Source: a virus. From it: a DNA stretch of 64,000 nt. Below are positions 5,336 to 5,971 of this stretch, piece by piece (within the stretch, counting starts at the first letter, position 1; each line of letters starts with the position of its first letter). The translations under genes and the position numbers were made by a program. The notes under the pieces were generated by a model. The model was not told the origin of the DNA and did not search any database. It saw only the letters and a program-made list of their open reading frames with translations. The stretch lies in IMG/VR virus record IMGVR_UViG_3300013099_000020; one strand, 5' to 3'.

Positions 5336-5971
5336 ATGGACATCGAAGAACTCAAGAGGCTGCGGCACCTAGAGGCTGCGCAACGTATGGCGGAGATCGC
5401 TCATCATGGGCAGTTCCGTCATCCAAAGGAGTTGGAGATCCCCTTCGTGACACACCCCATCGAGGTGAAGGACCTCTTGGCGGATCACGGTGTACTTGAT
5501 GAGGACATCCTCATGGCTGCGCTGCTGCATGACACCATCGAAGACACCACGGTCATCAGGCGTGACATCGTGCGTGTCTTCGGGACTATCGTGGCGGACT
5601 ACGTGGTCGAATGCACCACGGACCTGCCGGGGATGACCGTCAAAGAAAAGAAGGCGCTGCTTCGAGAGAAGGCCCCGACATGGAGTCTTGGTGCGCGCTG
5701 CATCAAGATGGCGGACGGCCTGTCGAACGTGAAGAGCATCGCCGAGACAGATCCCGGGTGGATGCCTCGTAGCCAGTTGGGCTATGTGACGACCACAGCG
5801 GAGATCGCCCATATCGTTGAGGATGATGATGGGCCGAAACCACCTCAGTCCCTTACCAATGCCTTCTTCAAACAGGTCTACGAGACGTTGGTCGTCGTGG
5901 CGGAGAGGCAGGAGGTCTACGACGTCGAGCGGGCGGAACGGAAGCGTCTGAACAAGATCAAGAATAACTAG
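5336..5971 (+). CDS. HD-domain small alarmone hydrolase (Mesh1/SpoT-hydrolase-like (p)ppGpp pyrophosphohydrolase)
   Basis: AHHGQFRHPKELEIPFVTHPIEV...LMAALLHDTIEDT (HD motif of RelA/SpoT hydrolase domains); downstream KEKKALLREK...CIKMADGLSNV matches the Mesh1 KLxDKLxN region; ~210 aa single-domain. Confidence 0.75.
   Translation: MDIEELKRLRHLEAAQRMAEIAHHGQFRHPKELEIPFVTHPIEVKDLLADHGVLDEDILMAALLHDTIEDTTVIRRDIVRVFGTIVADYVVECTTDLPGMTVKEKKALLREKAPTWSLGARCIKMADGLSNVKSIAETDPGWMPRSQLGYVTTTAEIAHIVEDDDGPKPPQSLTNAFFKQVYETLVVVAERQEVYDVERAERKRLNKIKNN

Follow-up and report, generated by a model that had tools for sequence, protein, structure and literature searches.

Stand-alone small alarmone hydrolases (SAHs) of phages include PbcSpo of Salmonella phage PVP-SE1 and PaSpo of Salmonella phage SSU5, which neutralise every toxSAS toxin against which they were tested (PMC7229694). 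PaSpo has also been used to tame CapRelSJ46 (PMC9712102), and both MESH1 and ATfaRel restore tRNA that has been pyrophosphorylated by toxSAS enzymes (10.1101/2021.04.30.441581). A putative further member of this group is encoded in the 64,000-nt stretch of viral DNA analysed here (IMG/VR record IMGVR_UViG_3300013099_000020; hereafter the window, which denotes this whole stretch). The gene in question, identified from the list of open reading frames (ORFs) and by reading of the sequence, is a plus-strand ORF that runs from ATG to TAG and specifies 211 amino acids (Table 1). With a probability of roughly 0.65, its product is a stand-alone, Mn2+-dependent, Mesh1-like SAH of a large tailed phage that would cleave 3'-pyrophosphorylated alarmones during infection.

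The 211-residue product is a stand-alone SAH of the RelA/SpoT homologue (RSH) superfamily and is closest to Mesh1 in both sequence and fold. Among Pfam families it is matched by HD_4 (38.4 bits against a cut-off of 27.2, E = 1.3e-9) and HD only, and by no synthetase or regulatory domain. The NCBIfam model spoT_relA matches it with E = 5.6e-17, confined to the N-terminal hydrolase part, and PHROG 990, annotated as 'metal-dependent phosphohydrolase', with E = 3.7e-20. In a sequence search of the PDB, the best matches are Drosophila Mesh1 (E = 5.5e-18) and human MESH1 (hMESH1; E = 3.6e-17), followed by Lmo0812, the hydrolase domains of SpoT and Rel (E ~6e-11) and RelH, with Aph1 as a marginal match (E = 6.4e-3). 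All matches down to E = 6e-3 are RSH hydrolases without exception. Against a profile of 76 homologues the protein reaches 140 bits, and the AlphaFold2 model derived from the same homologues (mean predicted local distance difference test score, pLDDT, 95.7) consists of one all-helical domain with a helix extension. The best Foldseek match of this model is hMESH1 (5vxa/3nr1; TM score on the target 0.88-0.91, root-mean-square deviation 1.5-1.8 Å), with RelH (TM 0.77-0.80), PaSAH (0.73-0.83), Rel and SpoT as runners-up, and the Foldseek matches with E ≤ 1e-3 are RSH hydrolases throughout. The original prediction, made from the letters alone, of a single-domain, Mesh1-like hydrolase of the RelA/SpoT type is thus upheld by profile, sequence and fold searches. 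It had also named the dGTPase and Cas3 HD proteins as subfamilies to which the protein might instead belong; this was checked, and both are ruled out, since neither appears among the profile, PDB or Foldseek matches, and the family assignment was not overturned.

The four motifs on which the prediction was founded are all present, namely AHHGQFR (residues 22-28), THPIEV (39-44), LLHDTIEDT (63-71) and MADGLSN (125-131). Conservation was assessed in two alignments, one of 77 sequences (76 homologues and the present protein; A2) and a wider one of 273 sequences (272 homologues and the present protein). The protein keeps every invariant column (H23, R28, H40, H65, D66, E69, D70, D127 and N131). 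The 2H2D metal site, formed by H40, H65, D66 and D127, is invariant over the 272 homologues and is intact here. E69 and D70 correspond to the ED diad, to which a catalytic or second-metal role has been ascribed (PMC11554896), and R28 corresponds to the base-stacking Arg represented by R44 in RelSeq and R24 in hMESH1 (PMC9293644; bioRxiv 10.1101/325266); the definitions of the HD motifs, including the HD1 Arg and the HD6 Asn, follow PMC9293644. Since the metal ligands, the ED diad, R28 and N131 are all intact, the enzyme looks catalytically competent.

Several other nearly fixed positions are changed (Y37F, N39T, K29H, D95T, R107A, Q109L, K128G and R146S). F37 replaces a Tyr conserved among RSH proteins (Y32 in hMESH1 and Y51 in SpoT-Ab), which is found in 261 of the 272 homologues, while Phe is found in eight; the aromatic ring is retained and the hydroxyl is lost. 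G128 replaces the basic partner residue of HD5, which is Lys or Arg in 242/272 homologues and Gly in none. HD5 variants of the D:hydrophobic type have been noted in the literature (PMC9293644).

One position that bears on specificity is that of hMESH1 Asp91. It is this residue that gives hMESH1 its monophosphatase activity towards ppGp and NADPH (Zhou et al., PMC11554896). Its replacement by Ala leaves ppGpp hydrolysis in place but lowers the activity on ppGp 26-fold (PMC11554896), and an Asp at this position is conserved in all MESH proteins and in SAH-Xc. In the profile alignment, T95 of the present protein pairs with the first D of the family motif TDD (posterior ~0.9). The column contains Asp in 250 of the 272 homologues and Thr in none, and the protein lacks the Asp characteristic of the Mesh1 subfamily. 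Two published NADPH contacts of hMESH1, K97 and R142 (10.1101/325266), are also replaced, by V102 and S146, respectively. From the loss of Asp91 and of the two contacts we predict that the enzyme, in the manner of SpoT, favours 3'-diphosphate esters over monoesters such as NADPH and ppGp, and that it would be a 3'-pyrophosphohydrolase and not an NADPH phosphatase.

Other phage-encoded SAHs often lack this Asp as well. It is missing in 5/8 of those aligned, where the column has Asn (PHB04, SSU5, Y3 and JA29) or Met (pVa-21); of the other three, 201phi2-1 has Glu, and LG08 and Psa21 retain Asp. E. coli SpoT has Lys. The span from R28 to H40 comprises 12 residues (11 in hMESH1 and 9 in SpoT) and corresponds to the extended HD1-HD2 loop of the Mesh1 type. 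In that alignment, residues 8-153 of the hMESH1 sequence agree with the PDB match.

Compared with Mesh1 (human HDDC3/MESH1, 3NR1/5VXA; Drosophila, 3NQW), the protein shows ~30% identity, the same single-domain architecture and the long loop between HD1 and HD2, and it shares with hMESH1 the 2H2D ligands, the ED diad, the HD1 Arg and the HD6 Asn. It differs from hMESH1 by the substitutions Asp91->Thr, K97->Val, R142->Ser, Y32->Phe and K123->Gly, by a five-residue insertion at ~164-168, and by a C terminus that is ~30 residues longer, where a long helix is predicted to run past the end of the hMESH1 alignment. In addition, it is phage-borne, whereas Mesh1 is metazoan. The long RSH proteins SpoT and Rel contain the same HD1-HD6 motifs and, like the present protein, a residue other than Asp at the determinant column, which fits a specificity for pyrophosphate hydrolysis; unlike them, the present protein has no synthetase, TGS or ACT domain, and the similarity is weaker (E ~6e-11).

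Among phage proteins, PaSpo and PbcSpo resemble the present SAH in being single-domain RSH hydrolases without an adjacent synthetase, and the role proposed for the present protein is the one known from them. The sequence comparison was made with PaSpo (SSU5_099), to which the identity is 32% over 135 residues (E = 1e-14). The two are homologous, but in the tree the present protein is nearer to the Mesh1-like cellular SAHs, and it probably belongs to a different subfamily. The closest phage-encoded relatives found are the SAH of Bordetella phage vB_BbrM_PHB04 (ATI15650; 35% identity over 179 residues, E = 9e-29) and the metagenomic phage protein P0049 (42% identity), both of which share with it the sequence GQ(F/Y)R and a residue other than Asp at the Asp91 column (Asn in both). 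Their genes are located in the head module, in the order portal, ~500-residue protein, 70-residue protein and SAH, whereas the present gene lies among small genes without functional annotation. The head-module SAHs occupy the position that MuF toxins and their immunity proteins take in other phages, and they may confer immunity to an RSH toxin that is packaged in the head. The portal-to-SAH order extends over 494..4504 in the extracted PHB04 locus and over 1932..6600 in a second extracted locus (L021). Aph1 (7SMG), a hydrolase specific for (p)ppApp from a temperate phage of Bacteroides, belongs to the same superfamily and is likewise phage-associated, but it is only marginally similar (E = 6.4e-3; TM score on the present protein 0.52), and no Apk-type toxin adjoins the present gene.

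Homologues are encoded in 94 phage records, many of them of jumbo phages. Two matches labelled 'Bacteriophage sp.' from human faeces (MT835471 and MT836483) were dropped; they are full-length long RSH proteins of the Rel type with synthetase domains, which suggests that these records contain bacterial sequence. The protein itself stands apart from all of these. A word-indexed search of 5.8 billion clusters found none with more than 50% identity over ~60% of the length. In a HMMER scan of 1.84 billion representatives it is the only match at E ≤ 1e-30, the next one having E = 1.9e-23, while 13,064 match at E ≤ 1e-3. A neighbour-joining tree gives it a long branch of its own, next to the Mesh1-like clade of cellular SAHs and outside the sampled phage SAHs; the closest cellular SAHs are from Acidobacteriota, Planctomycetota, Proteobacteria and others, so many phyla that they are uninformative as to the host. 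Judged by its sequence, the protein is a divergent, singleton lineage.

The C-terminal extension is unique to this protein. The last helix is predicted at residues 171-210 with block-mean pLDDT values of at least 94, and residues 193-211 have no counterpart in any homologue of the 77-sequence alignment. Within this tail, the hexapeptide AERKRL (residues 200-205, 5933..5950) is an exact copy of part of the aERKRLq motif, the most conserved non-catalytic motif of the family (E99-Q104 in hMESH1), while the canonical site of this motif is degenerate in the present protein (VKEKKALL). The tail is seen as a weak second domain when the family profile is searched with hmmsearch. In shuffles of the last 52 residues (160-211), AERKRL arises with a chance of ~5e-6, a value that comes from a post hoc test; at the DNA level, no internal duplication was found as a source of the tail copy. 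It is tentatively possible, though unlikely, that the altered pocket and the C-terminal helix together mark a phage SAH whose specificity has shifted away from NADPH and free alarmones. Its substrate could then be a macromolecule or some other new 3'-pyrophosphorylated target, for example tRNA pyrophosphorylated at its CCA end by toxins of the CapRel/FaRel2 type.

By analogy with the tested phage SAHs, the enzyme most likely serves during infection to clear 3'-pyrophosphorylated nucleotides that the host has made, and possibly pyrophosphorylated tRNA as well. Its substrates would be (p)ppGpp and/or (p)ppApp, from which it would split off the 3'-pyrophosphate, and it may do the same for CCA-pyrophosphorylated tRNA. 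The original prediction likewise proposed that such enzymes blunt the stringent response or neutralise toxSAS/CapRel-type systems, for which other phage SAHs provide published precedent (PMC7229694; PMC9712102). By removing alarmones, it would keep the host out of alarmone-mediated growth arrest, and the same activity would undo the product of abortive-infection toxins of the toxSAS and CapRel types. No match to the RelA_SpoT synthetase family was found among the ORFs scanned in the window, and a SYNTH motif of the E[IV]Q[IV]RT type is absent from all six frames of the 64 kb. With no synthetase detectable in the window, the gene is not visibly one half of a toxin-immunity pair.

The coordinates of the gene, its motifs and other features are collected in Table 1. 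The stop codon of the upstream 79-residue ORF (5332-5334) ends one base before the ATG of the SAH gene, so that the two look translationally coupled. The spacings in the upstream series of ORFs, up to the SAH gene, are -8, +1 and +1 nt; such tight spacing suggests that all four genes are coupled in translation, and they probably form a single transcription unit. The three upstream ORFs have no Pfam match above the family cut-offs and no PADLOC match; their PHROG matches are all weak, and the 79-residue ORF has a sub-threshold match to DUF5798. A gap of 40 nt separates the stop codon of the SAH gene from the next gene downstream. PADLOC found no match in the SAH and nine neighbours, and a scan of positions 900-8200 for promoters and terminators yielded no more sites than shuffled sequence. 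A longer ORF lies antisense to the gene (5369..6166); because the strong homologues belong to the plus-strand ORF, it is read as a shadow ORF.

Table 1. Features of the SAH gene, its surroundings and the rest of the contig
Feature	Coordinates	Strand	Remarks
SAH coding sequence	5336..5971	+	one RSH-type HD hydrolase domain plus C-terminal helix extension
GGAGG, Shine-Dalgarno-like	5325..5329	+	read from sequence; 6 nt before ATG
HD1, H23-H-G-Q-F-R28	5402..5419	+	R28 invariant or nearly so in the alignments
THPIEV	5450..5467	+	H40, first 2H2D metal ligand, invariant
LLHDTIEDT	5522..5548	+	metal ligands H65/D66; ED diad E69/D70; invariant in all alignments
T95 (hMESH1 Asp91 column), followed by D96	5618..5620	+	from profile alignment
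MADGLSN	5708..5728	+	D127, fourth metal ligand (HD5); N131, HD6; both invariant
Unique C-terminal extension, residues 193-211	5912..5968	+	end of predicted 40-residue helix
Three packed upstream ORFs, 225, 88 and 79 aa	4157..4834, 4827..5093, 5095..5334	+	ORF coordinates
Downstream gene, 340 aa	6012..7034	+	phrog_5931, E 3.8e-25; faint ParB-like signal
Major vault protein homologue, 871 aa	1448..4063	+	Pfam MVP_shoulder 3e-22, Vault_3 8e-8
tRNA cluster Leu(CAA), Tyr(GTA), Leu(TAG)	832..1072	-	tRNA scan
tRNA Ile, anticodon AAT	12171..12247	-	overlaps minus-strand ORF
GIY-YIG endonuclease	10309..10623	+	
3'-5' exonuclease, Rv2179c-like/RNase T	16792..17667	+	
RNase HII	18064..18777	+	
Histidine kinase, PAS-HisKA-HATPase	33330..34439	+	
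Response-regulator receiver proteins, two	34315..34854; 34845..35636	+	
1197-aa ORF	49249..52842		N-terminal match to Arash gp8, E 8e-4, 11% of query
Sigma factor	54288..55097		matches Arash gp10
Patatin-like phospholipase	60696..61568	+	
Last ORF of the contig	17331..20954 on extracted piece L006, beyond window end		matches Arash gp13

The phage setting assumed in the original prediction is supported by genes of phage families, by a tail/baseplate module syntenic with that of Salmonella phage Arash, and by genes shared with huge phages. A phage origin of the contig is very probable, and the contig probably represents part of a very large tailed-phage genome. Nearly all its genes lie on one strand and most are ORFans; the four tRNA genes (832..1072 and 12171..12247) lie on the minus strand, opposite to nearly all protein genes. 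An Ile tRNA with an AAT anticodon is unusual in bacteria, and this one may be a false call. Besides the sigma factor, the PHROG and Pfam matches of the scanned ORFs include a deoxynucleoside monophosphate kinase (phrog_139, E = 4.9e-47) and an exonuclease subunit of DNA polymerase. The best evidence for a tailed phage is gene order. The genes for a hydrolase, a sigma factor and a baseplate wedge protein are collinear with gp8, gp10 and gp13 of Arash (180 kb), of which gp8 is a virion 'cell wall hydrolase, structural protein', and the N-terminal part of the last ORF is baseplate-wedge-like, matching the baseplate wedge subunit of Bacillus phage G.

The gene for the major vault protein (MVP) homologue is located ~1.3 kb upstream of the SAH gene. 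Full-length matches to it, with 37-38% identity, are found only in uncultured huge phages (E = 4e-171 and 2e-151), the genomes in question being LR756500 (462 kb) and LR756501/LR756503 (735 kb). No SAH was found within ±15 kb of the MVP gene in LR756500 and LR756501. The 'first viral MVPs' were reported from gut phages in a 2023 preprint (10.1101/2023.11.10.566534). Another ORF matches an uncultured phage of 595 kb. Gene calls on five metagenome contigs, of up to 75,377 bp, gave exactly this SAH protein, and the DNA of the gene is the same in all; an indel in one contig variant (L004) shortens the MVP homologue from 859 to 843 residues.

Other searches gave little. When 8 kb of DNA surrounding the gene was compared by megablast with 50,697 phage records, there was no match, nor was there one in a scan of IMG/VR with the SAH protein. 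PHROG and Pfam scans of the ten largest ORFs matched a single one, the histidine kinase, and tblastn of a 1263-residue ORF and of a concatenate of eight ORFs (27.6-40.1 kb) found no phage match. The histidine kinase and the two receiver proteins (33330..35636, plus strand) form a phage-borne two-component system. At 27636..32878 (plus strand), an internally repeated 610-residue protein is followed by three ORFs of ~345-354 residues, the last two of which share N-terminal blocks such as AAGW.V..SSDGTTYNA.GDQI, the resemblance of the first being weaker and judged by eye. No counterpart of any of these proteins was found in Pfam, PHROGs or the phage collection; they may function in receptor binding or as fibres. 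A 240-residue ORF at 62064..62786 (plus strand) contains, as seen in the translation, approximately five tandem repeats of ~30 residues of the form KDDG..E.PQH..GLDPQ.DP...F.P(D/E)ES.

Some observations weigh against a competent alarmone hydrolase of a tailed phage. D96, the loop neighbour of T95, might stand in for Asp91, and the pocket changes Y37F, N39T, K29H, R107A, Q109L, K128G and R146S could weaken the activity or shift the substrate. Population variation was sought as a test of selection and there was none, the five contigs being identical in the gene. Genes for a capsid, portal or terminase were not recognised on the contig either.

Different explanations may be built on these points. 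One is that the protein is a metabolic phosphatase in the manner of Mesh1, taking a single phosphate from NADPH or from another 2'/3'-phosphorylated nucleotide such as ppGp or 3'-phosphoadenosine 5'-phosphosulfate (PAPS) and reshaping the redox and cofactor pools of the host, with alarmones not the main substrate. Its nearest solved relatives, the Mesh1 proteins, are indeed NADPH phosphatases that have also been crystallised with PAPS, bacterial SAHs can be promiscuous (PMC9765508), and D96 adjoins the column that determines phosphatase activity. Nevertheless, this explanation is unlikely, given that the determinant column itself is Thr (posterior ~0.9), that the NADPH contacts are gone (K97 -> V102, R142 -> S146), and that even hMESH1 hydrolyses ppGpp and detoxifies toxSAS. 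Changes in the pocket (Tyr to Phe, the HD5 Lys to Gly and several other atypical residues) might alternatively be taken as signs of a catalytically weakened binder, a sponge or sensor that sequesters an alarmone-like nucleotide without turnover, and sponges for nucleotides are known in phages as a counter to other defence signals. Such a binder is highly improbable: the metal ligands and the ED diad are all intact, which is unexpected if catalytic constraint had been relaxed, Phe occurs at the Tyr position in eight homologues as well, and PaSAH is active although even its HD1 Arg has been lost (PMC9293644).

The remaining explanations concern the partner and the origin of the gene. The SAH could be an immunity protein, or type IV antitoxin, that protects the producer against an RSH-type toxin of the same phage, after the models of ATfaRel-FaRel and of Aph1 with the MuF-fused (p)ppApp synthetase Apk2. 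Pairing of SAHs with toxins is documented (PMC7229694; PMC10083569), the SAHs of PHB04 and P0049 follow a portal and a ~500-residue protein at the position of MuF toxins, and the genome is probably much larger than the 75 kb available. Against this stand the lack of any RelA_SpoT match in the scanned ORFs and of a SYNTH motif in the six frames, hence of an adjacent toxin, the small uncharacterised neighbours in place of a portal/MuF module, and the weak similarity to Aph1 (E = 6.4e-3), all of which make an antitoxin quite unlikely. It is very unlikely that the contig is from the chromosome or plasmid of a poorly sampled bacterium and the gene an ordinary housekeeping or orphan SAH. Its closest sequence relatives are cellular, the recognisable capsid, portal and terminase are wanting, nine of the ten largest scanned ORFs have no PHROG match and IMG/VR gave none. 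In contrast, the co-directional and mostly ORFan array includes no scanned ORF of a typical cellular housekeeping family, and several phage-family matches, the GIY-YIG gene and the tRNA genes, the three genes collinear with the Arash virion module, including the baseplate-wedge homologue, and the full-length MVP homologues in huge-phage genomes all speak for a phage.

With the stand-alone alarmone hydrolase of a large tailed phage as the preferred reading, phage SAHs being already known and experimentally tested, the find is a divergent further member of the family and adds little alone. Its value lies in the naturally occurring replacement of Asp by Thr at the residue proposed to determine specificity, in the odd C-terminal tail and in the huge-phage-like fragment on which it occurs. 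Since its fold is Mesh1-like but the Asp proposed to decide between phosphatase and pyrophosphohydrolase activity is absent, the protein offers, from an independent lineage, a natural variant for that model. Should the tail and pocket mark an enzyme retuned to CCA-pyrophosphorylated tRNA, it would be a dedicated tRNA-repair counter-defence enzyme of huge phages. In any case, an alarmone-hydrolase gene is added to a fragment related to the huge phages of 460-735 kb, whose host-takeover genes are almost all uncharacterised.

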